Assembly: GCA_052326305.1 (NCBI GenBank)
Contig: JBKQPJ010000014.1
Span: 9,006 to 73,005, forward strand
Direction of reading: 5' to 3'
From: Thermoplasmata archaeon
GTDB lineage: Archaea > Thermoplasmatota > Thermoplasmata > Lutacidiplasmatales > UBA184
DNA: 64,000 nt
In this document: positions 48,001 to 64,000 of the stretch, one piece after another
How the letters are laid out: every line of letters begins with the position of its first letter
Numbering within the stretch: the stretch's first letter is position 1
Made by a program: the position numbers and the translations under genes
Notes under the pieces: generated by a model
Told to the model about the DNA's origin: nothing
What the model saw: only the letters and a program-made list of their open reading frames with translations
Databases searched by the model: none

Positions 48001-49506
48001 ATGGCAGGAACGACCCAGCCCAAGCCCGACATCCTCCTCATCGTTCTCGACTGCGTCCGCTCGGACCTGTTCAACGCCGAGGTCGCCCGCGCGGAGGCGA
48101 TGCCGTTCCTCCATTCGATGCGCAGCCAGGTGCTCGAGTTCCCCGGAACGGTGAGCCCGGCAAGCTGGACGATCCCGGGCCACGCGAGCCTCTTCACGGG
48201 CCTCTATCCGTGGGACCACGGGGCGCACTTCCGCCTCGGCCCCATCCTTACCCCGGGGCCCGAGACGCTCGGCGAGTTCCTGCAGAAGGAAGGATACGCC
48301 ACGTCGCTCTACTCCGCGAACGCCTACGTGCAGGTCTCCACGGGGCTCACGCGCGGCTTCGACGAGGCCCTCTGGGGCAGCGCCCGCGAGCTGTTCCTGA
48401 GGTTCCTCTCGATCCAGAACCCGTCCTGCCCGAACCTCGGGGGCCCCGCCCTGGCATTCCTTCCCTCTTCCCCGGACAAGGCCCCCCCGTCCCCCCTCCG
48501 CGATTTCGCCCTGAAGGCCCTTTCCTGGACGCCGTCGGTCTGGGACGGCATGAACCGCGTCGGCGGGAAGGTGCTCGGCACGTACGACCGGGACATGCAG
48601 TCCGTGAGCCCGTGGATCGAGGCGAAGCTCGACAAGTGGCTCGCCCGCCAACGGACCGACCAGCCGGTATTCTCGTTCGTGAACCTCTTCGAGGCGCACG
48701 CCCCGTACCTCGCGGAGGCGGGTCTCCCCGTCGGACTCGCTCGTTGGCTCTCTTACGCCACCTTCGCGCAGGACCACGCCCGCTGGGTCACGGAGCAGTG
48801 GAAGCCGAGCCCGAGGGAGGTCGAGATCCTGAGGACGGCCTACATCAAGTCGCTGCACGTCCTCGACCGACGAGTGAAGCAGGTCGTCGAACGATTCCGC
48901 GCCCACCGGGACTGGGAGAACACGCTGTTCGTCCTCACGAGCGACCACGGCCACGCGTTCCTCGAGCAGGAGATCCTCTACCACCGGTTCCGCGTCGACG
49001 AGCCGATCTCCCGGATCCCGCTCTGGGTCCGTCCCCCGGGTGGCAAGATGACCGGGGTCCGCTCGGACGAGTGGGCGAGCCTCATCGACGTTCCGCGGAC
49101 GATCGCCCACATGCTGGGGCGGGAGACGTTCGGCGACCCGAGCTCCCGCGACCTGTTTGCCCCGGTCCCCTCCCCCGACCCCCGGACCGTCTACTGCATG
49201 ACCGATGGGATCCCCGACAAGGAAGCTCCCGGCATGTCCCCGCAACGCCGCGAGTTCCTCAACTGGCTCGGCGTCGCCGCCTATCGGGGCGACACGAAGG
49301 CGATCGCCGGGGAACGGGCCGAGACAGAGGTCTTCCGGGTCTCCCCCGCGGACGCGCCCCACTCCCCGGCCCTTGCGCCGAAGGGGGGCCCCTCCGCCGA
49401 GGTCGCCGAGCTGGCCCGGCAGGCGTTCGAGCTCGCGGCCCAGCGGATCGCCTCGAAGCAGTTCCACGGGGACGTCGAACAGCGCCTCGCTGGCTGGGGT
49501 TATTGA
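48001..49506 (+). CDS. Sulfatase-like hydrolase/transferase (alkaline phosphatase superfamily), Thr-type nucleophile region
   Basis: PDILLIVLDCVRSD is the metal-binding start. WTIPGHASLFTGLYPWDHG aligns with the sulfatase C-x-P-x-R...TG block but reads T-x-P-x-H. LTSDHGH is also present. Confidence 0.75.
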   Translation: MAGTTQPKPDILLIVLDCVRSDLFNAEVARAEAMPFLHSMRSQVLEFPGTVSPASWTIPGHASLFTGLYPWDHGAHFRLGPILTPGPETLGEFLQKEGYATSLYSANAYVQVSTGLTRGFDEALWGSARELFLRFLSIQNPSCPNLGGPALAFLPSSPDKAPPSPLRDFALKALSWTPSVWDGMNRVGGKVLGTYDRDMQSVSPWIEAKLDKWLARQRTDQPVFSFVNLFEAHAPYLAEAGLPVGLARWLSYATFAQDHARWVTEQWKPSPREVEILRTAYIKSLHVLDRRVKQVVERFRAHRDWENTLFVLTSDHGHAFLEQEILYHRFRVDEPISRIPLWVRPPGGKMTGVRSDEWASLIDVPRTIAHMLGRETFGDPSSRDLFAPVPSPDPRTVYCMTDGIPDKEAPGMSPQRREFLNWLGVAAYRGDTKAIAGERAETEVFRVSPADAPHSPALAPKGGPSAEVAELARQAFELAAQRIASKQFHGDVEQRLAGWGY

Positions 49507-50641: not shown

Positions 50642-52474
50642 ATGAACGAGCAGAGTCAAAAGCGCGGACGACCATATTCTTGGCCACACCGACCCACCGC
50701 CGAGCGTGACACGGTACGTTTCCACCGGAGGCCGGACGGCTGGTCCGCGATGGCTTTCCCACTCCTCGCCGCCGGCCTGTTCCTCCTGGGAACGGTGCTG
50801 GTCCTTCCCGCCGTTTCGCCCCGCTCCACGGACTCCCCACCGATTTCCACTAGCCACTTTCTCCCGTCTGCCGGCCCCGCGCGGACGATCACTCTGAATC
50901 GCACCTCCGGTGATTCGTTCCTTTTGCTCTACGTCGACTTGATGAATTTCGTACCCTCTGGACGGGTCACGGTCAACGTCTACAATGCCAGCGTCCCGTC
51001 GTTTGCCATCGAATCCGACCCCTTCTTCTACCTGAATTCATCGGGCGGCGTGTATCAGCTGTTCACCCCGAACTTCAAGGCCAGCGTCGGCACCTACACC
51101 TTCACGGCGAACGAGTCGGGAGCGCCCAACGTCTCGGCGACGTACACGATTCACCCCAGCGCGCTCGGTGGCGGCGTGCTCACCGTCACCGCCTCGCCGG
51201 ACACTGGTTACCTCGGCTCGAGCATGACCATCACCGAGCTCGGCTTCCTCGCGGGGCAGCCGTTCAACGTGTACCTCGGCGCCCCGACGGTGCACTACGT
51301 GGAGATCGGCTCCGGTATCACGGGCGCGCCGGCCGGGATCATCATCCCGAGCCTACCCACCGGATTCTACGTCCTGTTCATCCAGGACGACTACTTTGAG
51401 TACGCCGCGACAACGGTCATCATCACGGCAGCGCCATCCACGATCGCGCTGAGCCCTCCGCAAGGGACCCCAGGGACGGTCGTGACCGCGACCATGACGG
51501 GATTCACACCTCCGGTCGAGGTCACGTTCGACAGCGCGCAGGCGTGCATCACGCCCACCCTGACCTGCACCTTCGTGGTGCCCTCCACGACACCGGGACC
51601 GCACACGGTCGCCGCCACCGACTTCGGCACGAATTTCGCGAGTACGCCCTTCACGGTTCTCGCGACTCCGGCCATCCAGTACCCGGCCTACTTCCTTGAC
51701 TTCAAGTTCCCGGTCGGGGAGGGGATCACGACCTTCCCCACGCCCTACAACGTCGCGGGGCACCACGTCTTCCTCCTGAACAACTGGACCTACAGTGACC
51801 CGAGCGCGGCGGGCTCGCTGCAGGCGACCCTGAACTACAGCGCCGACGCCGGTAATCTCCTACTTGCCGCGGCTCTCGGGGCCCATGTCCATACGGCGAA
51901 TCTCTACGGTATGAACGATACGGGCGGCACGATCCATATCTTCCTGCGCGTCACCTTCAGCAATTCGGTCCTCCGGGCCGCGCTCGCGCGCGGTCCTGCC
52001 GGGGTCAACATCGTTTCGATACGGCTGATACCGAGCACGGTGGGCTTCAATTCCCAGCCGGTGGGGCCCGCGAGCATCCCGCCGCTCAGCTACCCCAAGT
52101 ACCTGCTCACCACGAACCCGGGTAGCAACATGAATGGCAACGTGATAGTCGGCGCGTTCGAGGGATCGCTCGTCTCGGACTACACGTTGCAGTTCACGAC
52201 GACCCATGCTTGGCTGAACGTGACGTGCGCGTGGAACACGGCGAACCAGGCGATGCTGAAGGGGGCCTTCACGGGCGCCCACATCCTCTGGCTGAACCTG
52301 CGAGAGTTTGACAGCTCGAGCTCCGTCGTGCTCAACATCGGAGAGACGTACGTCCTGATATCCGCGATCTCGGAGAGAGCTGGCGGGGGAGACCTTCCGA
52401 CGTTCGTGGTCTCCTTCGAGGCCCCTGACTTTAGCGTGACCACGCCCGGGAGCACGATCTCCGTCAACCTCTGA
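50642..52474 (+). CDS. Large secreted/surface protein with Ig-like (IPT/TIG-like) repeats, sequon-rich
   Basis: The N-terminal anchor/signal is MAFPLLAAGLFLLGTVLVLPAV. Repeated beta-rich modules follow (ALSPPQGTPGTVVTATMTGF...). About 10 N-x-S/T sequons, Arg-poor composition, and locally lower GC. Confidence 0.65.
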   Translation: MNEQSQKRGRPYSWPHRPTAERDTVRFHRRPDGWSAMAFPLLAAGLFLLGTVLVLPAVSPRSTDSPPISTSHFLPSAGPARTITLNRTSGDSFLLLYVDLMNFVPSGRVTVNVYNASVPSFAIESDPFFYLNSSGGVYQLFTPNFKASVGTYTFTANESGAPNVSATYTIHPSALGGGVLTVTASPDTGYLGSSMTITELGFLAGQPFNVYLGAPTVHYVEIGSGITGAPAGIIIPSLPTGFYVLFIQDDYFEYAATTVIITAAPSTIALSPPQGTPGTVVTATMTGFTPPVEVTFDSAQACITPTLTCTFVVPSTTPGPHTVAATDFGTNFASTPFTVLATPAIQYPAYFLDFKFPVGEGITTFPTPYNVAGHHVFLLNNWTYSDPSAAGSLQATLNYSADAGNLLLAAALGAHVHTANLYGMNDTGGTIHIFLRVTFSNSVLRAALARGPAGVNIVSIRLIPSTVGFNSQPVGPASIPPLSYPKYLLTTNPGSNMNGNVIVGAFEGSLVSDYTLQFTTTHAWLNVTCAWNTANQAMLKGAFTGAHILWLNLREFDSSSSVVLNIGETYVLISAISERAGGGDLPTFVVSFEAPDFSVTTPGSTISVNL

Positions 52475-52590: not shown

Positions 52591-54681
52591 CTAGGTCGGC
52601 GAGCACGCGGGCACTGCCGGTCCGGGAAGGAACAAGAAGATACCCGCGTCGCCGGAGCGGTAGAGCGCGGAGAAGTCCGGCGAGCCCGTGAGCGCCGCCA
52701 TCTTCAACGGGGAAAAGGAGACCGTCGTCGCTCCCGTGACGAAGACCTCGGTGACGTTCAGATCAAGCAGCGCCGTCCGGGTCGTGGACGAATAGACCCC
52801 GTGCGTTAAGTTGCCGATCGCGACCGAGTAGGATCGATTGACGGAGAGGGGGAGGACGGGAAAGATCAGGTGGCTATCGGAATAGAGGGGGAGGAACGAC
52901 GCGGCCGACCCCGGAGACACGAACACCCGGGAGCAGGCGGGGAGGTGGGCTCCGGCCCACGCGAGCGCGTCGAGGTCCGCGACCGTCACGTTCGCGAGGG
53001 CGTCCAGGTGGCTGTCGAGGTAGTGGGGGGCATCGAGCACGGTCACGCCTCCCCCGACCCCGAGAGAAACGACGACCATCGCCGCGGCGACGACCTGCCT
53101 CAGACCGGGGGACCTCGGCTCCCTCCGGGAGGCGCGAGGACTGACGGCCCCGGCAGCCCGGTCCGGAGGGGCGTCCACGGTCGATCCCGACGGTCTTCCC
53201 GACAAGGAGAGGAATTCCACCGCGACCAGTACCGGGACCAGTGCCAACGCCTGGTAGCAGACGAAGAGGAAGTACGACGTTTCGTCGACGCTCGAGATCC
53301 CGGAGAGCCCCGCGGCCCCCACGGAGGAGGGGGTCAGGATGACAAGGGCCGTAGTGACGAGAAAGGTCACCGTCGTGGTGGCGATTACTGGGCCGACGAA
53401 ATCGGCCGGGAGGAATCTCCGGAGCCGCCCCTTCGGGCTCAGCCCCCACAGCGCGAGCAGCACTAGACCGATACCGAGAAGGATCGTGAGCTCGGCATCC
53501 AGGCCCTGAAGGGGAGAGACCTTCGGCTTCCAGAAGACGAACGGGTCGAGGTCACCGATGAACGATACGGTCGGCGGTGGCGGCCCGACGGGGGTCGCCG
53601 CGTACGGTCGGTTCCCGATCGCCGAGAGCACGTGCGACGGGTAAGGGAACCAGACCGCGAATCCGGCAAGACTTCGGAGGATGAAACCGAGGCCCACCGC
53701 CAGGATCACGGCCACCCTCGCGGTCCATCGGGCGACACTGCCGTGGAGCCCGGGAGCGAACAGAACTAGGAACCCCACGAGGAGGAAGAACAGGAGCTCC
53801 CCTACCGCCACACTGAGGCAGGTGCAGACCCCCAGAAGGACTCCGAACGCGGCGGCCTCTCTCCAGCCCGGCGACGTACCGGTGACGAACGGCTTGAGCC
53901 ATCCCAGTACCACCAGCAGCAGCGGCAGACAGAATGCGAAGTCGAACGATCCACCCACGAAGAAGCGCGGCCAGCTCGCGATCAGGCCGAAGAACGCCGC
54001 GGAGGTCAGACCGGTCCGCGTTCCGCGCGGGGTTCCGAGACCCCCGAGGCGCTCTCCCCAGCAGTAGGCCCCCACCAGCGAGAAGCTGAGGAAGAACGTC
54101 GGAAGGGCGACCGTGCTCGAGGGGATGGACCAACCGAGCAGGAGCACCGGCAGGCTCAGCCAGACGGCGGCCCCGGCGGGATAGGTGATGCCGTAGTCGG
54201 CGTACGGCCGTAACGTCCAGGGGATCGCGTGGTGGTTCAGGATCACCTGGACCAGGAGGGACGCCCAGCTTCCGTCGATGGCATTGGGCATCGTCCGTGC
54301 GCCGGTCGAGACCACCTCCAGGACGAGCAAACCGAACGTTCCGCCGATGAGCAAGATCCCGGGCCACGAACGGACCCAGCAGAGTCCCGCCCGGAGGGAG
54401 CTACCCCCTTCTCTCCACCATACCACCGCCAGGACGACTCCGCCCACGGCCAGGAGGCCGGCGACGACGGTCGAACCGAAGGCCGGGACCGGAAGCGACG
54501 CCACGACGAAGAACAGGGCGCCCGTCGCGAAGAACGCCGAAAGGATCCGCTCGGGGGTCGAGAGGCGGAACCTCCGGCCGACCGCCCACTCGGCTCCGCG
54601 GAGGAGTACCGTCCCGAGAGGGAGCGTGACCAGGAACAGGAGGAGCAGCCCCGCCACCACCGTCAGCGGGGAAAGCGGCAC
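52591..54681 (-). CDS. Large polytopic membrane protein (>=12 TM) with C-terminal extracytoplasmic domain; possible GT-C-like enzyme
   Basis: 696 aa with a GTG start. A GGATAAGA box (minus sense) lies 30 nt upstream. Hydrophobic helices cover the first ~480 aa and a soluble domain of about 200 aa follows. I recognise no diagnostic motif. Confidence 0.6.
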   Translation of the reverse strand: MPLSPLTVVAGLLLLFLVTLPLGTVLLRGAEWAVGRRFRLSTPERILSAFFATGALFFVVASLPVPAFGSTVVAGLLAVGGVVLAVVWWREGGSSLRAGLCWVRSWPGILLIGGTFGLLVLEVVSTGARTMPNAIDGSWASLLVQVILNHHAIPWTLRPYADYGITYPAGAAVWLSLPVLLLGWSIPSSTVALPTFFLSFSLVGAYCWGERLGGLGTPRGTRTGLTSAAFFGLIASWPRFFVGGSFDFAFCLPLLLVVLGWLKPFVTGTSPGWREAAAFGVLLGVCTCLSVAVGELLFFLLVGFLVLFAPGLHGSVARWTARVAVILAVGLGFILRSLAGFAVWFPYPSHVLSAIGNRPYAATPVGPPPPTVSFIGDLDPFVFWKPKVSPLQGLDAELTILLGIGLVLLALWGLSPKGRLRRFLPADFVGPVIATTTVTFLVTTALVILTPSSVGAAGLSGISSVDETSYFLFVCYQALALVPVLVAVEFLSLSGRPSGSTVDAPPDRAAGAVSPRASRREPRSPGLRQVVAAAMVVVSLGVGGGVTVLDAPHYLDSHLDALANVTVADLDALAWAGAHLPACSRVFVSPGSAASFLPLYSDSHLIFPVLPLSVNRSYSVAIGNLTHGVYSSTTRTALLDLNVTEVFVTGATTVSFSPLKMAALTGSPDFSALYRSGDAGIFLFLPGPAVPACSPT

Positions 54682-54949: not shown

Positions 54950-55825
54950 GTGGCAAGCCCTCATCCACGCGACCATGATTCGAAAGGAACCGGAAGGTCG
55001 CCAGGATTCGCCACAAGTGTACGGGGCGAGTGTGCAATGAACCCGCCGGGCCCGTCGTTCCCAATCGGCTTGTCCCTCATCATCCCGGCGTACAACGAGG
55101 AGGATCGACTCGGTCCCACGCTCGACCATTACCTTCCGGTCCTCGAGGCGTATCGGATCCCGTTCGAAGTGTTAGTGGTGCTTGACGGCGCGGACGGCAC
55201 GGAGGCGGTGGCCCGGCGCTACGCGGACCGCGGGGTGCGCTGTCTACGGTACGGCCAGAAGCTCGGGCGCGGGGGCGCGATCCTGGCAGGGTTCCGTCAC
55301 GCCCGCCTGTCGCTGGTCGCCTTCGCGGACGCCGACGGGAGCGTGCCGGCGGCGGATTTTCGGAAGCTGATCGACATCGGGCTGGAACAGAAGATCAGTG
55401 TCATCGCGTCCCGGCGGATCGATCCCTCCATGGTCGTGGTCCCCGAGCCGGCCATGCGGCGGCTTATCGGATGGACGTGGCACGCCTTCGTTCGGGTCTC
55501 CCTGAACCTGCGCGTCGCGGATGCGCAGTGCGGCCTGAAGATATTCCCCCATGACGTCATCGACCTCATCCTGCGACGGCTCACCGTGACGAACCGCGCC
55601 TTCGAGGTCGGGATGCTGTTCCACGTGGTGAACGCCGGCTACCCCCTCGTGGAGGTCCCGGTCGAGTACGTTCACGACTTCAACACCCGGATGCCGATCA
55701 CCAAGGCGATCCCGGTTATGTTCCTCACCTTGATCGGCATGGCCTTGGCCAACCGGTTCAGGTACCGACGAGCCCTTCCGCTCGGGGCGATGCAGCGGCT
55801 GAACTTGATCTTCCGAAGCACGTGA
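54950..55825 (+). CDS. GT2 glycosyltransferase (dolichyl-phosphate hexose synthase-like)
   Basis: LSLIIPAYNEEDRL, VLDGADGT and FADADGS are present, with a C-terminal TM (VMFLTLIGMALA). The start is either GTG 54950, shortly after the TTTTAAA box at 54912-54918, or ATG 55037. Confidence 0.8.
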   Translation: MASPHPRDHDSKGTGRSPGFATSVRGECAMNPPGPSFPIGLSLIIPAYNEEDRLGPTLDHYLPVLEAYRIPFEVLVVLDGADGTEAVARRYADRGVRCLRYGQKLGRGGAILAGFRHARLSLVAFADADGSVPAADFRKLIDIGLEQKISVIASRRIDPSMVVVPEPAMRRLIGWTWHAFVRVSLNLRVADAQCGLKIFPHDVIDLILRRLTVTNRAFEVGMLFHVVNAGYPLVEVPVEYVHDFNTRMPITKAIPVMFLTLIGMALANRFRYRRALPLGAMQRLNLIFRST

Positions 55826-55902: not shown

Positions 55903-57135
55903 GTGTTTGTGAACGGCTCGAATCCAGCTTCCCCGGCCCTCCCGCCCTGTCCGTTCGCCGTCGTCGCACCCACCCCCTTCTACTCGCCCGGCGGGTGCAG
56001 CGCTCGGATCCTCGGCGAGATCGGGGGAATGCCCGCGACCCAACGAACGCCCACCGTGTTCACCTACGGTACGGGCGCGGACGTACCTGGGCTCCGCACG
56101 GTGCGGGTCGGTCCGAAGATCGCCGGATTCACTGGTGGTTTTCACTGGTCCCGGCCGATCTTCGACGCGCTCCTCTCGAAGGCGATCCTTTCCAGCAGGG
56201 AGCGGCCCCGCTCCCTCCACGTCCACCTTCACGAGGGCGGCCTGATCGGTCGGATCGCCCGGACCCTGAGGAACGTGCCCTACGTGGTGGACCTTCAGGG
56301 ATCCTTGGTCGAGGAAGTGCTCCGTCGCTCGAAGCAGGGGGAGACAGGTATCGCAGGAACCACCCTCTCCGGCGTCGAGCACCTCGCCGAGAACGGCGCG
56401 AGCTACGTCGTGGTCAGCTCTCCTTCGATGTACGATCGCCTTCAAACTCGGCTCCCGAACCTCCGGGAGCGGGTCTTCCTGATCGATGACGGCATCCCGG
56501 ACGCCTCGATCCTGAACGCGGAGGACCGGGCCCGCTACCGACGAGAGGTCCGTTCCACGCTCGGCGACGCGGAGGGGTCGGTGGTCATCGCCTACGTAGG
56601 TTCCCTCTCCGCCTCCCAGGGCATCGACCGCCTCATCGCGGCGGCGCCGGGCATCCTTCGGTCCGTACCAACCGCGACCTTCCGCATCTACGGGACACCG
56701 AACCCGGGGTTCAGTATCTCGAGGTACACCGAGGCTGCCCGCCGGCTCGGCGTAGAGTCGCGGATCCGGTTCATGGGGGCGGTCCCATACGAGCAGGCGA
56801 CCCGGGCCCTCGCCGCGGCCGACATCGCGGTGTCGTGGAAGGCGAATCCCTTCGAAGCGAACGGAAAGATCGCCGTCTACCTGGGGGCGGGGGTGCCCAC
56901 CGTGGCGATACGCTCCCCGATCGTCGAACGGTATCTGGGGAAGGGCGGCGAACGGGGAGGTGTGATCGCGGCCGACGCCGACGAAGCGGCGCAGTGCGTC
57001 GTGCGGCTGGCCCGCGATCCCGAGTTACGGGAACGGCTGGGGAACGCAGCGTTGAGCACGGCGCGCGACAGGCTCGGCTGGTCGGTTCGGAGCGGGCAGA
57101 TCCTCGATCTCCACCGCCGACTGTACGCCTCGTGA
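55903..57135 (+). CDS. GT4 (GT-B fold) glycosyltransferase
   Basis: The N-terminal VVAPTPFYSPGGCSARI and the C-terminal GSLSASQGIDRLI...FEANGKIAVYLGAGVPTV are typical of the group 1 family. The start codon is uncertain. Confidence 0.8.
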   Translation: MFVNGSNPASPALPPCPFAVVAPTPFYSPGGCSARILGEIGGMPATQRTPTVFTYGTGADVPGLRTVRVGPKIAGFTGGFHWSRPIFDALLSKAILSSRERPRSLHVHLHEGGLIGRIARTLRNVPYVVDLQGSLVEEVLRRSKQGETGIAGTTLSGVEHLAENGASYVVVSSPSMYDRLQTRLPNLRERVFLIDDGIPDASILNAEDRARYRREVRSTLGDAEGSVVIAYVGSLSASQGIDRLIAAAPGILRSVPTATFRIYGTPNPGFSISRYTEAARRLGVESRIRFMGAVPYEQATRALAAADIAVSWKANPFEANGKIAVYLGAGVPTVAIRSPIVERYLGKGGERGGVIAADADEAAQCVVRLARDPELRERLGNAALSTARDRLGWSVRSGQILDLHRRLYAS

Positions 57136-57177: not shown

Positions 57178-60100
57178 TCAGGCTCGGCGGCGATCCGAGG
57201 GGGCGAAACGACCGGGCCGGAGGGTCGCGAACAGAGCGAGCAGAACCACCGACCCGATGGCGCCCCCCCCGGCCGCCCCGACAAACTCCACCTGGGCCAT
57301 CCGGAGTGCTCCTTCCGGGTTGGGAGCGCTTACGTCGAGGGAGCCGATCCCCGAGACCGACGCCAGGACCACGGAAGACCCTCCATCCTTGATCGCCTCG
57401 ACCGCGTACGCGCCGGGCAGGAGCTCGAGCTGGGCTGGTTCGAGAAGTTTCAGACCGTCGACCCGGACGGCCGTCCCGGCGGGTGCGATGACCGGATAGG
57501 CGACTGACGCGCGGAGCGTCCAGAGCTCCGCCGGCGTCGAGCAGGGACCGGCCACCAAGAGGTTCCCCGAGTTCGCATCGTAGCCGAGCGATCCGGCGCA
57601 GGTCCCGGTGGCCACGAACCCGTCAAAGTTGCCGTTCGTGGAGTTGTAGATCGTGACCAGCCCATCCGCCACGCCGCCGACGAAGAGAAGGCCATGGGCG
57701 AGGAAGAAGCCGTCCGTGGACCCTCCGTGGGCGTCCACGGCAAGGATCGATCCGCTCGTAGCGTTCAGCCAGACGGTCTTTGGAGGGAAACTCTGGGTGG
57801 CGACGACGAGCGGCCCGGTAACGGCCACGTGGTTGGCGATCACCCCATAGTGGTAGATCTGAGCGAGATCCCCGGTCGAGAGATTGTACGCCGTGGCGCT
57901 GGGGAAGCGGCCGGAACCGACCAGGAGCTCTCCACGGAGCGGATCCAACGCGAGGGAAGTGCCGGTCGGTATCACGGTATAGGTCCGGAGCGTGGTGAAC
58001 GTCCCGAGATCGATCTCGAGGACCTTGCCGGAGGACGGTATCAGGGCGTAGACTGACGGGGCCTCCTCTCCGAACGCGAACGCAGTGACCGGCGCCGACA
58101 CGACCAGGGTCGCCGACAAGGTCAGATCACCGGCCAGGCCCACGGAGTAGTCGACCAAGGTATCTCCCCCGGCCGACACGATGAGCGCCGTGGCCGAGGG
58201 CGACAGACCCATCGCGAGCACCTCGGCGTGACCCGCGGGGAGGGCGACCCGGTAGTTCGATCCGGAGGCGTTCAGGACCTCGAGGGAGTCGTTCGGGGAG
58301 TCGGAGAGGTACGCCACGCCGTTCACCGGATCGACCGCGACCGCCGAGGTCGGCCCGCTCGTGGGGACCGTCCTCAAAAGGACGGATCCGACCGGCCCGG
58401 GTCCGAACCCCTCGATCTCCACGACCTGGGAGGGGATCCCTGGGTCGAAGACCGCGACGAGGTGGTAGTGGGCGGTCACGTACGAGCGCAAGTACGGAAC
58501 CTCCGACTCCAGGCTCAGGGTCTTGTTGCCGACGACCACCAACGGGACGTACGTACGGTTCCAAGTCGAGAAGATCTCGGAGAAGGTCGGGGCCAGGCCG
58601 AAGGGATCGTAACTGAGCGGGGACTGGTTCATCCGCAGCGGCACGGACGGGTAGGTGTAGTCGTCGATGATCGTGGAGAGGTTCAGGAGCACGAGCCGGT
58701 CGGCGCTGGCTGCGAACAGGCTGTCGGCGGTGAAGATCGTCGCGGCGGGGGAGGTGTGCGAATCGAGGTACCCGGCCACCTTCTCTACCTCGGGCAAGGG
58801 GTACACCCGCTGGTAGAGGTTCATGGCCGGCAGACCGTGGGCATAGGGGCTGTTGTACGGGTTCACCGGTCCCAGAATGAGGATCCCGCCGAGCGCGGAG
58901 GGGGCCGTCAGCGCGATCGCGAGGAGAACGACCCGTGCGGTGGCGCGCGTCGACCCCGAATGCGAGGTAGGTCTACTCCACCGGGTCCGGCTCGATCGCT
59001 CCACCGGGCCCTGCGCCGCCGATGTGAGCTGGGCGATCCGATCGGCCAGGTAGATCCCCACCACTAGGCTGGCCGGCGCCGTGATCTCGATGAGGTAGTG
59101 GATGAAGAACGCGGGATAGAGGAAGGTGAAGAAGACCAGGGGGAGGGCGGTCCAGGCGATGAAAAACGGGAACGCCACGCCCTCCCGGGTGCCCGACGCC
59201 GGATCGTCTGGAACAACGTCCGTCCGGACGATCGCCCAACCGACGAGGATGGCGCCGAACAGGACCGGGAGTCCGAGAAAGAACGACTCGCCCTGACCCC
59301 ACGACTGGTAGCTGAGACCGTAGAGCAGCACGAGGATCGTCGCGATCCCAGCGAGCCGGGTCGCCCACCTCGCGGCCCGTGGAGGGCCACTTCCCCGGAA
59401 GTACCACGCCGCGGCTCCGATCATGCCGAGGGCGATCGCCGGGAGGAGCAGGATCCCGTAGGCCAGCGCCCCGAAATGATACGGGGGGAGAACGTGATTC
59501 CGAGAGTACGTGGCCCCGAACCCGTACTGGGCGTAGACCCATGGAAGGGAGGTACGGGCGGCAAAATATCCGAGGATCCCGCCCAGCAGGCCGACGAACC
59601 CGGCGATGGCCGCAATCGTAGAGGCCCAACGGCGTCCGTCGGGGGACCGATAAATCGCGACCGCGAGGAACAGCGGAACGAGGAGCGCGGTGTCCCTCCG
59701 GGTCAGGACGGCGACCGCCAGGAGGACTCCGATGCCGAGGGCCCAAGGAGCGGTCAACGACCCTCTTCTTCCGAAAAGGATCGCGGCGGCGAGGACGAGG
59801 GGGGCGAGGGAGGCGGCCTCGATGATCACGATGCTGTTGTAGTACAGCGAGAGCGGGCTGAACAGGAACACGGAGGCTGCGATCAGCCCCGCGCCCTCGC
59901 TGTGCTGGGAACGGCCGATGGCATAGAGGCCGAGCGCTGTCGCGAGAACTAGCCCGATGAGCTGAAGCCGGGCCACCAGGAGGCTGGCCCCGAACAGCCG
60001 GACCCCCAGGGCGAGGTAGTACGGCACCACCGGTTCGATTCCGACGAAGTTCACGAAGGGGACCTGGCCGTGGGCGATCTGCACCGCGGCGAGGAGGTAG

Positions 60101-60231
60101 CCCCCCTCGTCCAGATCGGTCCACTGGAGCAAGGCGAGGATCGTGTAGACGACAACGCCCCCGATGAGGAGGAGGAGTATCGGGAGCGATCGGGAGAGAC
60201 GTTCGCGAACGGCCAAGAACGAGGCTCTCAT
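57178..60231 (-). CDS. Giant fusion protein: GT-C-type polytopic glycosyltransferase-like N-domain + beta-propeller-like ectodomain + Ig-like domain + C-terminal TM anchor
   Basis: The first loop motif WTDLDEGGY lies after TM1, with about 13 TM helices. NPYNSPY...QRVYPL...TYVPLVVVG follows. Propeller-like repeats (AVDPVNGVAYLSD.., LDPLRGELLVG.., YDANSGNLLVAG) come next. The anchor is GAIGSVVLLALFATL. ATG 60231 is preferred; the ORF opens at 60399. Confidence 0.7.
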   Translation of the reverse strand: MRASFLAVRERLSRSLPILLLLIGGVVVYTILALLQWTDLDEGGYLLAAVQIAHGQVPFVNFVGIEPVVPYYLALGVRLFGASLLVARLQLIGLVLATALGLYAIGRSQHSEGAGLIAASVFLFSPLSLYYNSIVIIEAASLAPLVLAAAILFGRRGSLTAPWALGIGVLLAVAVLTRRDTALLVPLFLAVAIYRSPDGRRWASTIAAIAGFVGLLGGILGYFAARTSLPWVYAQYGFGATYSRNHVLPPYHFGALAYGILLLPAIALGMIGAAAWYFRGSGPPRAARWATRLAGIATILVLLYGLSYQSWGQGESFFLGLPVLFGAILVGWAIVRTDVVPDDPASGTREGVAFPFFIAWTALPLVFFTFLYPAFFIHYLIEITAPASLVVGIYLADRIAQLTSAAQGPVERSSRTRWSRPTSHSGSTRATARVVLLAIALTAPSALGGILILGPVNPYNSPYAHGLPAMNLYQRVYPLPEVEKVAGYLDSHTSPAATIFTADSLFAASADRLVLLNLSTIIDDYTYPSVPLRMNQSPLSYDPFGLAPTFSEIFSTWNRTYVPLVVVGNKTLSLESEVPYLRSYVTAHYHLVAVFDPGIPSQVVEIEGFGPGPVGSVLLRTVPTSGPTSAVAVDPVNGVAYLSDSPNDSLEVLNASGSNYRVALPAGHAEVLAMGLSPSATALIVSAGGDTLVDYSVGLAGDLTLSATLVVSAPVTAFAFGEEAPSVYALIPSSGKVLEIDLGTFTTLRTYTVIPTGTSLALDPLRGELLVGSGRFPSATAYNLSTGDLAQIYHYGVIANHVAVTGPLVVATQSFPPKTVWLNATSGSILAVDAHGGSTDGFFLAHGLLFVGGVADGLVTIYNSTNGNFDGFVATGTCAGSLGYDANSGNLLVAGPCSTPAELWTLRASVAYPVIAPAGTAVRVDGLKLLEPAQLELLPGAYAVEAIKDGGSSVVLASVSGIGSLDVSAPNPEGALRMAQVEFVGAAGGGAIGSVVLLALFATLRPGRFAPSDRRRA

Positions 60232-60655
60232 GACGGTGGGAAGAGGAACGCGGGCCCCCTCGTCGTGCGGGGATCGCGAGCCAGGGGGCGTGAGACCGAC
60301 GTCACCCGCCAAACCCTCGCGCCCCGACACGAAGCCGGACTCGGGTGCCATATTTAGCCCGTCGGCAAGCACAGGCTCGTCGAGTTGTCCTCGTGGCACT
60401 CGGGACCGGGTCGCGGTCGGCCAACCCTGTCATGGTGAGCCTTCCCTTCGGAACTGCCATCTATCCCCTCGAGTTGGGAGCGAGCGAAGGTAGGTTCCCT
60501 TGACCTCCGTCGGTCTAGTTTCCGCGACTAGCCCCCGGGGGATGCCGCTGTGGAGCGCCCGAGTTCGTTTCACACTTCACGCCGGAACCCTTCTCCTGCG
60601 CTTTCCTTCGGTGACGCTCCACCTCCCACGGGGTCTACGTGCCGCCTCGAAGGCG

Positions 60656-61447
60656 ATGGAGGCCCGTGTGACGGAGGAGTTCCAGAGATCCCCGGTGGAC
60701 ATCGGTCGCATCGGAGGTGCCCGGGTCCATCTCAATCCACGCAACACGCTGGCCCAGAACGCTTCGATGGCGATCGCCGGATGGTACGAGCCCGCGGTGA
60801 CCGAGGTGCTCTCTTCGCTCTGTCGCCCGAACGGGCTGGTCGTGGACGTCGGGGCGAACATCGGTTGGTATACCTTCCTCGCCGCCGAGAGGGTGGGCAC
60901 GGGGGGCCGCGTGCTCGGGTTCGAGCCGGACCCGGAGAACTTCCACCTTCTCTCGACGACGCTCCGGGAGAACCCTCGGCCGCAGATCCGAATCCATGAA
61001 TCCTGTCTCTCGGATCGAGACGGGGAGGAGCAGCTCTTCCTTTCCGAGGAGGCCGCCTCCTACCATTCGATCTCCCGACCGGTCGGGGTCCGGTCGATTC
61101 CAGTATCCGCGACCCGACTGGACACCGTGGTCGAGAAGGAGGGGATTCGGTCGATCGATATGGTCAAGGTGGACGTGGAGGGCGGTGAGCCCAAGGTACT
61201 CCGCGGTGCCTTGACGGCGCTCCGATCGGGCGTGATCCGGAGCCTGATCATCGAATGGCGACCGGAGTCGTGGGGGGCGGAAGAGTCGCTCTGGAACGAG
61301 GTGACTGCAATGTTTGATGTGTTTCGGCTCGTGCCGTCTCCCCGCCTACTCGTGGCCTTGTCGGACCCGACGGTCGCGCGGGTCAGTGGGGAGACCACGG
61401 TGGCAGGGATCCACGGACACGACCTGTTCCTCTCATGGAAACGGTAG
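60656..61447 (+). CDS. FkbM-family SAM-dependent methyltransferase
   Basis: VVDVGANIGWYTFLAAE, VLGFEPDPENF and IDMVKVDVEGGEPKVLRGA are present. The start is uncertain (ORF opens at 60500; ATG 60542 or ATG 60656). Confidence 0.8.
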   Translation: MEARVTEEFQRSPVDIGRIGGARVHLNPRNTLAQNASMAIAGWYEPAVTEVLSSLCRPNGLVVDVGANIGWYTFLAAERVGTGGRVLGFEPDPENFHLLSTTLRENPRPQIRIHESCLSDRDGEEQLFLSEEAASYHSISRPVGVRSIPVSATRLDTVVEKEGIRSIDMVKVDVEGGEPKVLRGALTALRSGVIRSLIIEWRPESWGAEESLWNEVTAMFDVFRLVPSPRLLVALSDPTVARVSGETTVAGIHGHDLFLSWKR

Positions 61448-61493
61448 CCGGGGCCGATCCAGCGCGGTCCGTGCAGGACGCCGGACCCCGGGA

Positions 61494-64000
61494 CTATACC
61501 GCGTCCTCCCGTGGACGGGTCGCGGGCCGGGCGGGTGGGGGGAACCAGAGGACGAGTGCGGCGATGAGGACCGCCCCTCCCGTGACGCTCACCTCAAAGA
61601 GCGTCTGGAGCGCCCGGACGGCGCTGATCGAAACCCCTAGGGAGGGGGACCAGACCGTGTCCGCCGTGAAGGTCAGTACGAACTCCTGGGGGCTTACTCC
61701 GGGTCCGGTGACGTTGATCGAGTACTGACCCGGAAGGATTCTGAGGTGGGCCGGTGTGGCGACCGGGAGCCGGCCGATTGTCACGCTGCCTCCCACCCCG
61801 GGGTTACCGACGGTCAGATTGACCATCGGTCGGAGCGTCCATTGATCGACCGACCCACTGCACGCGCCCGTCAGGACGAAGGAACGGGGCGTCGCAAGGA
61901 AGCTCAGGGAGGCCGGACACTCCCCGGTGAGGAGGGATCCCACGAATGTGCGGTTCGCGACGTCGAAGAAGGAGACACGGCCTGTACCATATGACCCGAC
62001 CGCTAGAATGTTGCCGTGGACCGCGAACCCTTCGGCCTGAGGCCCAGCCCCGACCGAAGCCAGGACCCCACCGCTCGTCGCGTTCAGCCACTCGAGCAGA
62101 CCCGTCGCGGCCCACGTCACCACGAGTACGGATCCGTTCACGTAGACATTGTCCGCCTCGAAGCCCAACTTGAAGACCGTTGCCTCGACCCCGGTCGACG
62201 CGTTGTAGACCCCCAGGACCGTGGTCGACCCGGAGGCGACGTACGCGTCGTTCGAGCTCGAACTCACGGACAACGCGGCAGGGGAGGCAACGACCGGGAA
62301 GCTTTCGATGGACGCTCCCGTGGACTCGTTGAACGCATAGAGCGTCGACGTCGACCGGCAGACGACTAGAACGGCGTTCAGGCCCGGATCGAATGCGAAG
62401 GCGGTCGGGGCCGCGGCAAGGTTCAATTCGAACGCCTGCGAGGTCGCGCATGCCGTCTCCACGTTCTCCACCACTATGTGGGAGGATAGGGCGGCCACCC
62501 AGATCTGTCCCGTTTCCGGATTGAATCCCACGGAACGAACCCCCGCGATTCCCGCCGGTAGCAGGAGCGAACCGCATTGTACCATCGTGGACCCATTGAA
62601 CAGATCGATCGCGGAGGAGTTCCAGGCCGAGGCAACTACGAGGTCGTCGCGCGGGCTGAAGGCTGTGAACGAGGAGCTCGTCCCCGGACCCGGCACGCTG
62701 ACCGAAAGGCTACCGGAAGGGGGTGGGCGGCCGAGCGCCCAGACCTGGACCGCCGACAACGCGAGTTGATTGCCGAACGTCTGGAGCATGTCGTACCGGC
62801 TCGCGATGTAGGTGGAGAGGTACGGGAAGTTCAGTTCGAGCGAACGGGTCCGGGCCCCCACCACGACCATCGGAACGTACGTCCCGTTCCACTTCTGGAA
62901 GATCTGGGCCCACGAGGGGGCGAGGTTCGTGCGGTCCGGACCCAGAGGAAGTGCGTCGAATGGACGGGGGCGATCGTACAGGTCTACAATGACCGTGATG
63001 TTGAGCAGGTTCGGCCGGTCCGCGGTAGTGATGAACGCAAGGTCCCCCGTGAACACGGTGGATCTCGCCGGCGTGTTGGCATCCACGTAACTCGCCACCT
63101 GGGAGACCATGTCGAGCGAGTAGACCCTTTGATTCGCGTTCTCATCGGACAAACTGCTCGCGAGCGGCTCGTTGTACGGGTTCGACGGACCCAGCACGGC
63201 GACGGCCGAGAAAAGACTCGACCCGACCAGTAGGAGAACCACCGCCGTGGCTAAGGCGCTCGGGCGGGGCGCGCGCTGTCGACCAAGTACGGTCGTGCGA
63301 GCCTCCCTGGCTGACTTTGGATCATCGCTAGGGGCCGGCTGGGCAACGGGGGCGAGAACACGCGTGAGGAGGATCCCTCCCCCTACCGAGGCGGGAACCG
63401 AGAGCTCGAGGGTTCGGTGGGTGAAGAAGCTCGCCGAAACCACCCCGTCGACGACGATCACCAGGGCGACCCATCCTAGGCAGAACGATAGGAGCAGGAG
63501 CTCGGCCGAGCCGGCCGACAGGCTCCAATCCGCGCGCTCGAGGGACCGGAAACCGTAGAACCAGCTGAACAAGAGGAGGCCCGTGAGGACCACTACCCCG
63601 TAGAACAGGAGGTCCCCGGTTCCGTAGCTGAAGTAGGTGACGGCGAGCCACGGAAGGGCTATCATGACGAGTCCCGCCAACTCCCCGGCCCTCTTCCCCC
63701 ACCAGCGATGGCCCGAAAGCATCAACAACATGCCGGGGACGAGGGCGAGTAGCGTCAGAAGCGTGGGTTCCAAGACCGCTGTGTAGCCCAACGCTCCCAG
63801 GCGCAGGGTGAGCGGCTGACCGTGGCCGAGGTATCCCGGCCCGGGACCGTACTCCACCCACATCCAGGAAAGGGAGGTCAGCCGGACGAACGCGAGAAGG
63901 ACCGTACCGAAGGTGAGGAGAACCCCGACCGATACGGCACCCAGCCGGAGGAGACAGGTCGCGAGGCGGTTCCGGTTCTGCCAGGCGACGACCAGGAAGA
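61494..64000 (-). CDS. Paralogue of the membrane + beta-propeller fusion protein (5' end outside window)
   Basis: Collinear with 57178-60231: NPYNEPL...QRVYSL...TYVPMVVVG...WLNATSGGVLA...TGECPASL...WTLRP, with a C-terminal TM GGAVLIAALVLWF. The reading frame stays open and hydrophobic upstream of Met 63863 to the window edge. Confidence 0.7.
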   Translation of the reverse strand, partial: FLVVAWQNRNRLATCLLRLGAVSVGVLLTFGTVLLAFVRLTSLSWMWVEYGPGPGYLGHGQPLTLRLGALGYTAVLEPTLLTLLALVPGMLLMLSGHRWWGKRAGELAGLVMIALPWLAVTYFSYGTGDLLFYGVVVLTGLLLFSWFYGFRSLERADWSLSAGSAELLLLSFCLGWVALVIVVDGVVSASFFTHRTLELSVPASVGGGILLTRVLAPVAQPAPSDDPKSAREARTTVLGRQRAPRPSALATAVVLLLVGSSLFSAVAVLGPSNPYNEPLASSLSDENANQRVYSLDMVSQVASYVDANTPARSTVFTGDLAFITTADRPNLLNITVIVDLYDRPRPFDALPLGPDRTNLAPSWAQIFQKWNGTYVPMVVVGARTRSLELNFPYLSTYIASRYDMLQTFGNQLALSAVQVWALGRPPPSGSLSVSVPGPGTSSSFTAFSPRDDLVVASAWNSSAIDLFNGSTMVQCGSLLLPAGIAGVRSVGFNPETGQIWVAALSSHIVVENVETACATSQAFELNLAAAPTAFAFDPGLNAVLVVCRSTSTLYAFNESTGASIESFPVVASPAALSVSSSSNDAYVASGSTTVLGVYNASTGVEATVFKLGFEADNVYVNGSVLVVTWAATGLLEWLNATSGGVLASVGAGPQAEGFAVHGNILAVGSYGTGRVSFFDVANRTFVGSLLTGECPASLSFLATPRSFVLTGACSGSVDQWTLRPMVNLTVGNPGVGGSVTIGRLPVATPAHLRILPGQYSINVTGPGVSPQEFVLTFTADTVWSPSLGVSISAVRALQTLFEVSVTGGAVLIAALVLWFPPPARPATRPREDAV

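Follow-up and report, generated by a model that had tools for sequence, protein, structure and literature searches.

How does a glycosyltransferase that works on the far side of a membrane choose the molecule that it modifies? Enzymes of the GT-C class attach sugars there in all domains of life, and their acceptor choice is understood for few accessory domains, namely MIR, TPR, carbohydrate-binding modules and the outer domain of STT3. We interrogated a locus that raises this question in an uncultured soil Thermoplasmata archaeon, within a 64,000-nucleotide stretch of its DNA (the window; contig C14:9006-73005 of genome G000, which has 1.94 Mb, 68% guanine plus cytosine (G+C) and a completeness of 95%). 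Two genes of the window, called A and B here, encode paralogous proteins in which a GT-C membrane domain is followed by a beta-propeller ectodomain and a C-terminal anchor. The architecture is real and unusual. For its function, sequence comparisons and structural models lead us to favor moderately the view that A and B are competent GT-C enzymes that would move a sugar from dolichyl phosphate (Dol-P) to a surface glycoconjugate outside the cell, with the propeller probably docking the acceptor. The family would add a new solution to those listed above: an ArnT-like core onto which an entire surface-protein module has been grafted, with a membrane tether at each end of the module.

Two complete paralogues

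The two genes and the parts of protein A are as follows, in window coordinates.

57178..60231, minus strand: gene A (P0001), a GT-C glycosyltransferase of 1017 amino acids (aa) with a propeller ectodomain and a C-terminal anchor, recognized by its open reading frame (ORF), its PMT_2 match and its orthologues
58867..60231, minus strand: A residues 1-455, GT-C membrane domain with 13 transmembrane (TM) helices, N-terminus in and C-terminus out, from the structural model and Foldseek
60097..60123, minus strand: A residues 37-45, WTDLDEGGY, the acidic motif of the first outer loop, with D41-E42-G43 conserved family-wide
58396..58866, minus strand: A residues 456-612, alpha/beta juxtamembrane extracytoplasmic domain with the motifs GPxNPYN, QRVYP, FTxD and WNxTxVP..GxRT
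57517..58395, minus strand: A residues 613-905, seven-bladed YVTN/WD40-like beta-propeller with Cys878/Cys897, from profile, model and Foldseek
57337..57516, minus strand: A residues 906-965, small beta-sandwich, PEGA/Ig-like, with strands at 898-959 in the model
57178..57336, minus strand: A residues 966-1017, linker, C-terminal TM helix (972-1004 in the model) and basic cytoplasmic tail
61494..64000, continuing to window coordinate 64586, minus strand: gene B (P0003), paralogue of A, complete on the contig, 1030 aa

The start of gene A may be off by a few residues: the protein has 1012 aa in the public gene call, and a GTG at 60399, upstream of the start used here, would yield 1073 aa (56 residues more); the orthologues of A are 46-55% identical to it and all about 1000-1040 aa long. 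Gene B runs past the window edge, and its missing 5' end was retrieved from the contig, where the ORF is complete and carries the first-loop motif WVDLDEGLY. An earlier interpretation made from the letters of the window (the sequence-only reading) had described A and B as collinear paralogues, which BLASTP bears out (30% identity over 755 columns, E 4e-91). Every sequence element named in that interpretation was found in its place; the word 'giant' was an overstatement for proteins of about 1020 aa. Each of the two proteins is complete, with 13 TM helices, a D-E pair, the juxtamembrane domain, a 7-bladed propeller, a beta-sandwich and a C-terminal TM helix.

The membrane domain has a GT-C fold

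The assignment of the N-terminal domain to the GT-C class was made in the sequence-only reading, and both profile and structure comparisons agree with it. The PMT_2 profile (PF13231) scores 37.7 bits for A and 50.1 bits for B at a cut-off of 26.1, and all 37 family members lie above the cut-off (best E 2.4e-21). A first AlphaFold model, of full-length A from 8 sequences, was poor in the TM and linker parts (predicted local distance difference test score, pLDDT, 30-70). Residues 1-612 were therefore rebuilt with a 37-sequence alignment, which gave a pLDDT of 90.9 and a predicted template-modeling score (pTM) of 0.92. The second model contains 13 TM helices followed by an alpha/beta domain at 455-612, the polytopic fold of ArnT, STT3 and PMT enzymes.

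Using Foldseek against the PDB, we found that every match of this second model at E below 1e-3 is a GT-C enzyme. The top match is ArnT (5F15; E 4e-8, template-modeling score (TM-score) 0.55 on the target). Further matches below that threshold are yeast and mammalian STT3 (8age), ALG12, AglB (7e9s), PglB, ALG9, AftB and Pmt4, and AftD, ALG3, PimE, Emb and PIG-M-type enzymes stand lower in the list. Pmt4 ranks 22nd, and Pmt1/2 occupy ranks 36-38 with partial alignments. When a HMMER profile of the TM domain was run against the PDB sequences, its sole match was glycosylphosphatidylinositol (GPI) mannosyltransferase 1, an enzyme dependent on Dol-P-mannose (Dol-P-Man) (E 6e-5). With a profile of the whole protein there were 259 matches, and the best 60 consisted entirely of propellers, without a GT-C enzyme.

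The acidic residues D41-E42-G43 directly follow TM1. They are invariant in all 16 diverse sequences compared and at least 90% conserved across the 37, and the first-loop pair noted in the sequence-only reading is therefore kept in homologues. The active-site pairs of ArnT (D55/E56) and Pmt1 (D77/E78) also sit in the first outer loop (PMC7801869). Judged by this published loop placement, D41-E42 of A corresponds in position to both pairs; the correspondence is positional rather than one of sequence-level alignment, because the TM profile reached only GPI mannosyltransferase 1. Other residues conserved family-wide are G55, P58, P67, G81, P126, E138, G168, R178/R179, W231 and Y379.

Strict membership in the PMT family (GT39; PMT1/2/4) was ruled out, since the MIR and PMT_4TMC regions are missing: MIR matched none of the 37 members, and PMT_4TMC matched one of them at E 0.005. 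The name 'GT family 39 protein' that NCBI uses is therefore no evidence of PMT membership. Names given to family members vary between 'GT family 39', 'ArnT family' and 'hypothetical protein', and a single family that carries several conflicting labels is a warning on automatic names.

Topology and ectodomain

In protein A, with its 13 helices, the N-terminus is basic, and so are the loops on the inner side at 155-160, 196-200, 279-292 and 407-430. From sequence and model alike, the N-terminus is predicted to lie inside and everything between TM13 and the terminal helix outside. The ectodomains of 27 members hold 304 N-x-S/T sequons versus 112 expected from shuffles, a 2.7-fold excess, and the TM domains of family members hold almost none. 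Cys878 and Cys897 are conserved in the last propeller blade, and a basic tail follows the C-terminal TM helix. A cytoplasmic propeller was ruled out by the 13-TM topology, the sequon excess and the conserved Cys pair; with the N-terminus inside, these features put the propeller on the outer face, where the sequence-only reading had it.

The motifs NPYNSPY, QRVYPL and TYVPLVVVG, from which a conserved juxtamembrane module had been recognized, are present and belong to the part that the family conserves best. In mean pairwise identity the juxtamembrane domain reaches 38%, the TM domain 32% and the propeller 24%. The juxtamembrane domain holds the place of the ArnT outer domain and also occurs in shorter relatives without a propeller. 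It contains a sequon, W-N-x-T (in A, W-N-R-T at residues 557-560, 58552-58563), that is kept in at least 85% of the propeller-bearing members and may carry a glycan that the structure requires or else belong to a substrate-binding motif.

The YVTN-like blades, the small beta-sandwich and the terminal TM helix that had been read from the sequence are all present in the AlphaFold model. The propeller consists of 28 strands in 7 blades of 4 (pLDDT 80-90). Our ectodomain profile matches 1L0Q, a Methanosarcina mazei surface protein, in its YVTN propeller (E 1.4e-13), and Foldseek of the full-length model returned only propellers, with a TM-score of 0.82 to 5yzv and with 1L0Q also matched, over 386 columns. 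Pfam propeller models match family members only sporadically. Pfam and NCBIfam scans yielded no family name for the juxtamembrane domain or the sandwich, and the PEGA likeness of the latter comes from an 'LLPGxY' motif alone, with no Pfam match.

A TM segment ends every full-length family member, and F983 and R1005 are invariant among close homologues of A. The C-terminal helix does not look like a generic anchor and may pack on the GT-C bundle as a 14th helix.

Distribution and origin of the architecture

We searched the 570-aa ectodomain exhaustively with phmmer against 1.84 billion representative proteins (E up to 1e-3) and obtained just 39 matches, so the architecture is rare. About 27 of these share the full architecture, because they agree in length (1000-1095 aa) and in the position of the match. 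About ten relatives of 566-863 aa have only the GT-C core and the juxtamembrane domain in common with the rest; they stop after the juxtamembrane domain or bear a different C-terminal domain. One of these C-terminal domains matches 3keto-disac_hyd/DUF1080 in Pfam, and a similar C-terminal motif can be seen by eye in four more, five in all (P0024, P0027, P0032, P0036 and P0040). Named members come from metagenome-assembled genomes (MAGs) of Thermoplasmata or Thermoplasmatota, and one short form is an 'ArnT family glycosyltransferase' of a Hodarchaeota MAG.

Among 401 genomes sampled across the class, the full architecture is present in six, all in the window's own family and spread over three genera. 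Five of the six carry two copies, which is the most that this class-wide search could show, as its profile scored only two candidates in each genome. A first sample of 36 other species of the same genus contained the architecture in none, and an ectodomain search of 60 near relatives gave nothing beyond weak propeller matches. An assembly artefact was ruled out: the architecture of about 1000-1095 aa recurs in about 27 independent 50%-identity clusters, in many assemblies and in six species genomes. The fusion described in the sequence-only reading is genuine.

In a maximum-likelihood tree all propeller-bearing proteins group in one clade (Shimodaira-Hasegawa-like approximate likelihood ratio test, SH-aLRT, 100) and the short forms fall outside it, as expected if the fusion happened once. 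Within clade I, A and B form sister sub-clades, and other genomes pair members of clades I and II or two members of clade II. In clade II members a motif G-P-S-L-x-G-I-x-x-L-Q-x-x-F-x-x-E-V recurs before the C-terminal TM segment. The order propeller, sandwich, anchor is that of ordinary archaeal surface proteins, and the simplest origin would be that an ArnT-like gene fused with a surface-protein gene downstream of it. The graft happened a single time, in soil Thermoplasmata, and as a rule two copies of it are retained.

A conserved glycan neighborhood

The genes around A and B include the following.

54950..55825, plus strand: glycosyltransferase of family GT2 (PF00535), of the GtrB/ArnC/DPMS-like polyprenyl-phosphate-sugar synthase kind, the likely donor-making enzyme
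55903..57135, plus strand: glycosyltransferase of family GT4 (Pfam Glyco_trans_1_4, Glycos_transf_1), a conserved neighbor
50642..52474, plus strand: secreted, sequon-rich protein of 610 aa, co-inherited with the locus, candidate acceptor or partner
52591..54681, minus strand: polytopic membrane protein of 696 aa, with a 63%-identical orthologue in L003, the locus of the closest relative
60500..61447, plus strand: FkbM-family methyltransferase (PF05050, E 2e-20; TIGR01444, 93.6 bits versus a cut-off of 37.7, E 1.5e-26)
48001-49506: sulfatase-fold gene, a sulfatase-like paralogue
64579-66090, minus strand, beyond the window edge (C14:73584-75095; L002:4538-5959): sulfatase-like gene directly upstream of B

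The best PDB matches of the GT2 are GtrB (5ekp), ArnC (8vxh/9bhc) and Pyrococcus furiosus DPMS (5mlz), and it is therefore the kind of enzyme that makes lipid-linked monosaccharide donors for GT-C enzymes. In NCBIfam it is similar to PpgS, ArnC, the haloarchaeal Dol-P-hexose transferase and AglJ. We compared the window with four further loci (L003-L006), each from another MAG. GT2 orthologues (44-73% identical) and sulfatase-like orthologues (31-66%) flank the GT-C genes in all four, and GT4 orthologues (41-68%) adjoin a GT-C gene in all four. Locus L003 has orthologues of both A and B (55% and 63% identical); in L005 and L006 a B-type gene is followed by FkbM, with no A-type gene on the fetched part of the contig. 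An epimerase/dehydratase acting on nucleoside diphosphate sugars is also encoded in the neighborhood of A and B.

In L003, L005 and L006 a homologue of the 610-aa protein stands next to the locus. Across the 401 genomes of the class, strong matches are confined to the three that carry A/B-type genes, and these strong homologues always stand beside those genes (G172, G425/L005 and L006). The protein has no Pfam or NCBIfam family assignment. The 696-aa membrane protein has no match in Pfam, NCBIfam or the PDB sequences; its C-terminal outer domain bears sequons, and a paralogue on contig C16 adjoins a gene for a Wzx/Polysacc_synt-type flippase. It could be an unrecognized glycan-handling enzyme or flippase.

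The sulfatase-like gene upstream of B ends within the start of B: its stop overlaps the B start ATG by 8 nucleotides (ATGGCTGA). The same 8-nucleotide overlap is found in L005 and L006, and its being shared with two other MAGs suggests that the two genes are translated in a coupled way and that the sulfatase-like protein functions together with the GT-C protein. Three sulfatase-fold paralogues (48001-49506, the gene upstream of B, and C14:77688-79226) are 28-30% identical to each other. They carry W-[ST]-x-P-[SG]-H in place of the C/S-x-P-x-R of true sulfatases, and none has a signal peptide.

The FkbM gene had been described as lying between A and B in divergent orientation. It does lie there and is divergent from A, but it is convergent with B. 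A 59%-identical orthologue adjoins the B-type gene in L005 and L006, not in L003, so that FkbM is linked to B in three of the four examined loci that hold a B-type gene, the window included. The protein has neither a signal peptide nor a TM helix, and any methylation would therefore be cytoplasmic. The role that the sequence-only reading gave it, that of modifying the transferred sugar, finds no support here.

Just outside the window, C14:75.1-81.6 kb (window about 66100-72600) has 56% G+C, versus about 67-71% in the contigs of the genome. This 6.5-kb stretch encodes a second GtrB-like GT2 (37% identical to the GT2 at 54950), two GT4-like proteins, the third sulfatase-like protein and a methyltransferase, and has the appearance of a recent acquisition that extended the glycan island. 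It is followed at the contig end by a putative transposase fragment, read from its N-terminus only. Taken together, these features of the neighborhood mark a variable, probably mobile, surface-glycan island.

Elsewhere in the genome, an STT3/AglB candidate and a third PMT_2 protein are encoded on other contigs. The former is the sole STT3/AglB-type match in the genome (C6:137579-138652; 25.3 bits, just over the cut-off) and sits in a 2215-aa open frame, far longer than the usual AglB.

Proposed function and its alternatives

We propose that the neighboring GtrB/ArnC/DPMS-like GT2 would load a monosaccharide onto Dol-P in the cytoplasm, and that the lipid-linked sugar would be flipped by some flippase. 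The GT-C domain would then transfer the sugar, by way of D41-E42 in outer loop 1, to a surface glycoconjugate. The favored acceptor would be a glycan already present on a secreted or surface glycoprotein, with the 610-aa protein, the sole secreted protein inherited with the locus, as the best candidate. The sequence-only reading had put forward the window's stand-alone YVTN proteins as acceptors, but no finding singles them out.

On this proposal, an ArnT-like core would have picked up an archaeal surface-protein module made of a YVTN propeller, a beta-sandwich and a C-terminal TM anchor. The module would be fixed in the membrane at both ends, by TM13 and by the terminal helix, and the propeller would therefore be kept beside the catalytic domain. 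Its most plausible task there is to dock the acceptor or the surface layer. The paralogues A and B probably either work as a pair or differ in the sugar, the linkage or the acceptor.

Several observations weigh against this proposal, most of all at the docking step. The propeller is the least conserved and fastest-evolving domain, nearly all of its conserved residues are structural Gly or Cys, and our family conservation analysis found no conserved surface residues in it that would mark a fixed binding site. The linker domain has a pLDDT of 30-40 in the full-length model, too low to place or orient the propeller relative to the active site. Docking is a weak step for these reasons, and the suggestion in the sequence-only reading that the propeller recognizes acceptors is not supported. 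A flippase gene, whether of the GtrA family or AglR/Wzx-like, is absent from the locus: the GtrA family (PF04138) has no match in the genome, and PF01943 matches occur only on contig C16. Four family representatives have lost part of the acidic pair (P0025; P0026, which is copy b of genome G087, L015; P0038; and P0039), with D41 missing in WASSSEG, WGDSGEG and WGTTGEG and E42 missing in WGNLDSG, so that not every copy in the family need be an enzyme. The organism is uncultured. Finally, a set of GT4, GT2 and GT-C would suit the synthesis of a lipoglycan or glycolipid equally well.

In genome G087 the degenerate-motif copy stands in tandem with an intact one (WAMDDEG). Judged from their motifs, the degenerate copies hint at catalytically dead partner subunits.

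The alternative that survives best is the elongation of a lipoglycan, glycolipid or exopolysaccharide in the manner of PimE, MptA, Emb or AftD, in which the cytoplasmic GT4 would start a glycolipid, the GT-C proteins would extend it with Dol-P-linked sugar after flipping, and the propeller would hold the growing glycan in the way of the carbohydrate-binding modules of AftD and Emb. The combination of a GT4, a GT2 resembling polyprenyl-phosphate-sugar synthases and a GT-C enzyme mirrors the pathway to phosphatidylinositol mannosides and lipomannan. AftB, AftD, PimE and Emb all appear in the Foldseek list, the one PDB sequence reached by the TM profile is a GT-C enzyme with a lipid acceptor, and the presence of two or more GT-C paralogues in one genome would fit an elongation in successive steps. 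Membrane lipoglycans are abundant in Thermoplasma relatives. We nevertheless consider this alternative unlikely. The locus lacks a polymerase, a chain-length regulator and an initiating phosphoglycosyltransferase, the YVTN propeller is not a known carbohydrate-binding module, and of the conserved products of the locus only a secreted protein is exposed at the surface.

The sequence-only reading had instead pictured A and B as direct protein O-glycosyltransferases that transfer a Dol-P-linked sugar to Ser or Thr of surface proteins, with the propeller as the counterpart of MIR or TPR. This agrees with the PMT_2 match, with the D-E motif as in Pmt1, with the NCBI label 'glycosyltransferase family 39 protein' on one orthologue and with the secreted protein that is co-inherited with the locus. 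O-mannosyltransferases of the GT-C class with built-in protein-binding repeats do exist (TMTC, PMC7801869; TMEM260, PMC10214176), and the enzymes of archaeal O-glycosylation are not known (PMC4973528). Set against these points are the structural ranking, with ArnT first and the Pmt proteins well below it, partly aligned, the absence of MIR and the single weak PMT_4TMC match, and a propeller without conserved surface residues; O-glycans are also not known from this lineage. We regard direct O-glycosylation as distinctly unlikely.

A bolder form of our proposal would make the propeller a built-in substrate clamp, closed on the GT-C domain by the 14th TM helix, that captures the 610-aa protein as it emerges from the membrane. 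A and B would then be the first archaeal protein-directed transferases, O-specific or glycan-specific, and the paralogues a heterodimer like Pmt1-Pmt2 with one partner dead in some genomes; we hold this to be very doubtful. Finally, that A and B are mainly structural surface proteins whose GT-C domain is a degenerate anchor or scaffold (a pseudo-enzyme) is highly improbable, for although the ectodomain is laid out like archaeal surface proteins (YVTN plus PKD in 1L0Q) and is sequon-rich like them, and four representatives have lost D41 or E42, A, B and most relatives keep D41-E42-G43 and many residues of the TM and juxtamembrane domains, conservation there exceeds that of the propeller, and the genes stay beside a donor-making GT2.

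The candidate donor synthase and the co-inherited, putative secreted glycoprotein offer a testable entry to extracellular glycan tailoring in archaea, possibly including O-glycosylation, for which the enzymes are largely unknown.

Comparison with known systems

The closest parallel is ArnT of Cupriavidus metallidurans (GT83; 5F15/5EZM), which likewise has 13 TM helices, carries a D-E pair in its first outer loop and continues after TM13 into an alpha/beta outer domain; a partner GT2, ArnC, makes its polyprenyl-phosphate-sugar donor. The sequence similarity of ArnT to A is below HMMER detection. ArnT ends after the outer domain, whereas A and B add a propeller, a beta-sandwich and a 14th TM helix, and ArnT modifies lipid A, which archaea lack.

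A functional parallel within archaea is the AglD/AglR/AglS system of Haloferax volcanii, in which a Dol-P-sugar synthase of family GT2 is combined with a multispanning, PMT-related transferase that acts after glycan attachment (PMC3871713, PMC4973528). There AglD produces Dol-P-Man, whose mannose AglS attaches outside the cell, as the last sugar, to the N-glycan already bound to the protein (PMC3871713). No AglR-like flippase is found in our locus. AglS is not known to have a propeller or a second anchor; the likeness is one of function, not of sequence compared with AglS. Bacterial three-component systems follow the same logic, and in GtrA/GtrB/GtrC loci, as here, a GtrB-like synthase stands beside a GT-C enzyme in a variable, mobile surface-glycan locus (PMC11127046). 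Unlike those systems, our genome has no GtrA-family gene, the proteins carry a propeller that the Gtr GT-C enzymes lack, and the host is an archaeon.

PMT, TMTC and TMEM260 enzymes (GT39, GT105 and GT117) share with A and B the GT-C/PMT clan and the acidic pair of loop 1, and they have a built-in non-catalytic domain (MIR or TPR) that is thought to engage the acceptor (PMC7801869, PMC10214176). The accessory domain of our family differs in being a C-terminal propeller that is re-anchored in the membrane. MIR, TPR and PMT_4TMC are missing, and PMTs are weak structural matches of the family. Mycobacterial AftD and EmbA-C also join a GT-C core to a large C-terminal outer accessory region; theirs consists of beta-sandwiches of the carbohydrate-binding-module type, has no terminal TM anchor and serves an arabinan acceptor. 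The M. mazei surface-layer protein fragment 1L0Q has the same succession of propeller and beta-sandwich (YVTN plus PKD), but it belongs to a stand-alone secreted surface protein without an enzyme domain.

As the sequence-only reading had supposed, a description of this architecture was not found in the literature on GT-C and propeller fusions in archaea, on GT-C enzymes of archaeal O-glycosylation or on GT39 in Thermoplasmata. The enzyme class, the donor logic and the propeller fold were already known. What is new is the combination of an ArnT-like core with a propeller, a sandwich and a re-anchoring TM helix, its occurrence as pairs of paralogues, and its presence in a narrow archaeal lineage.

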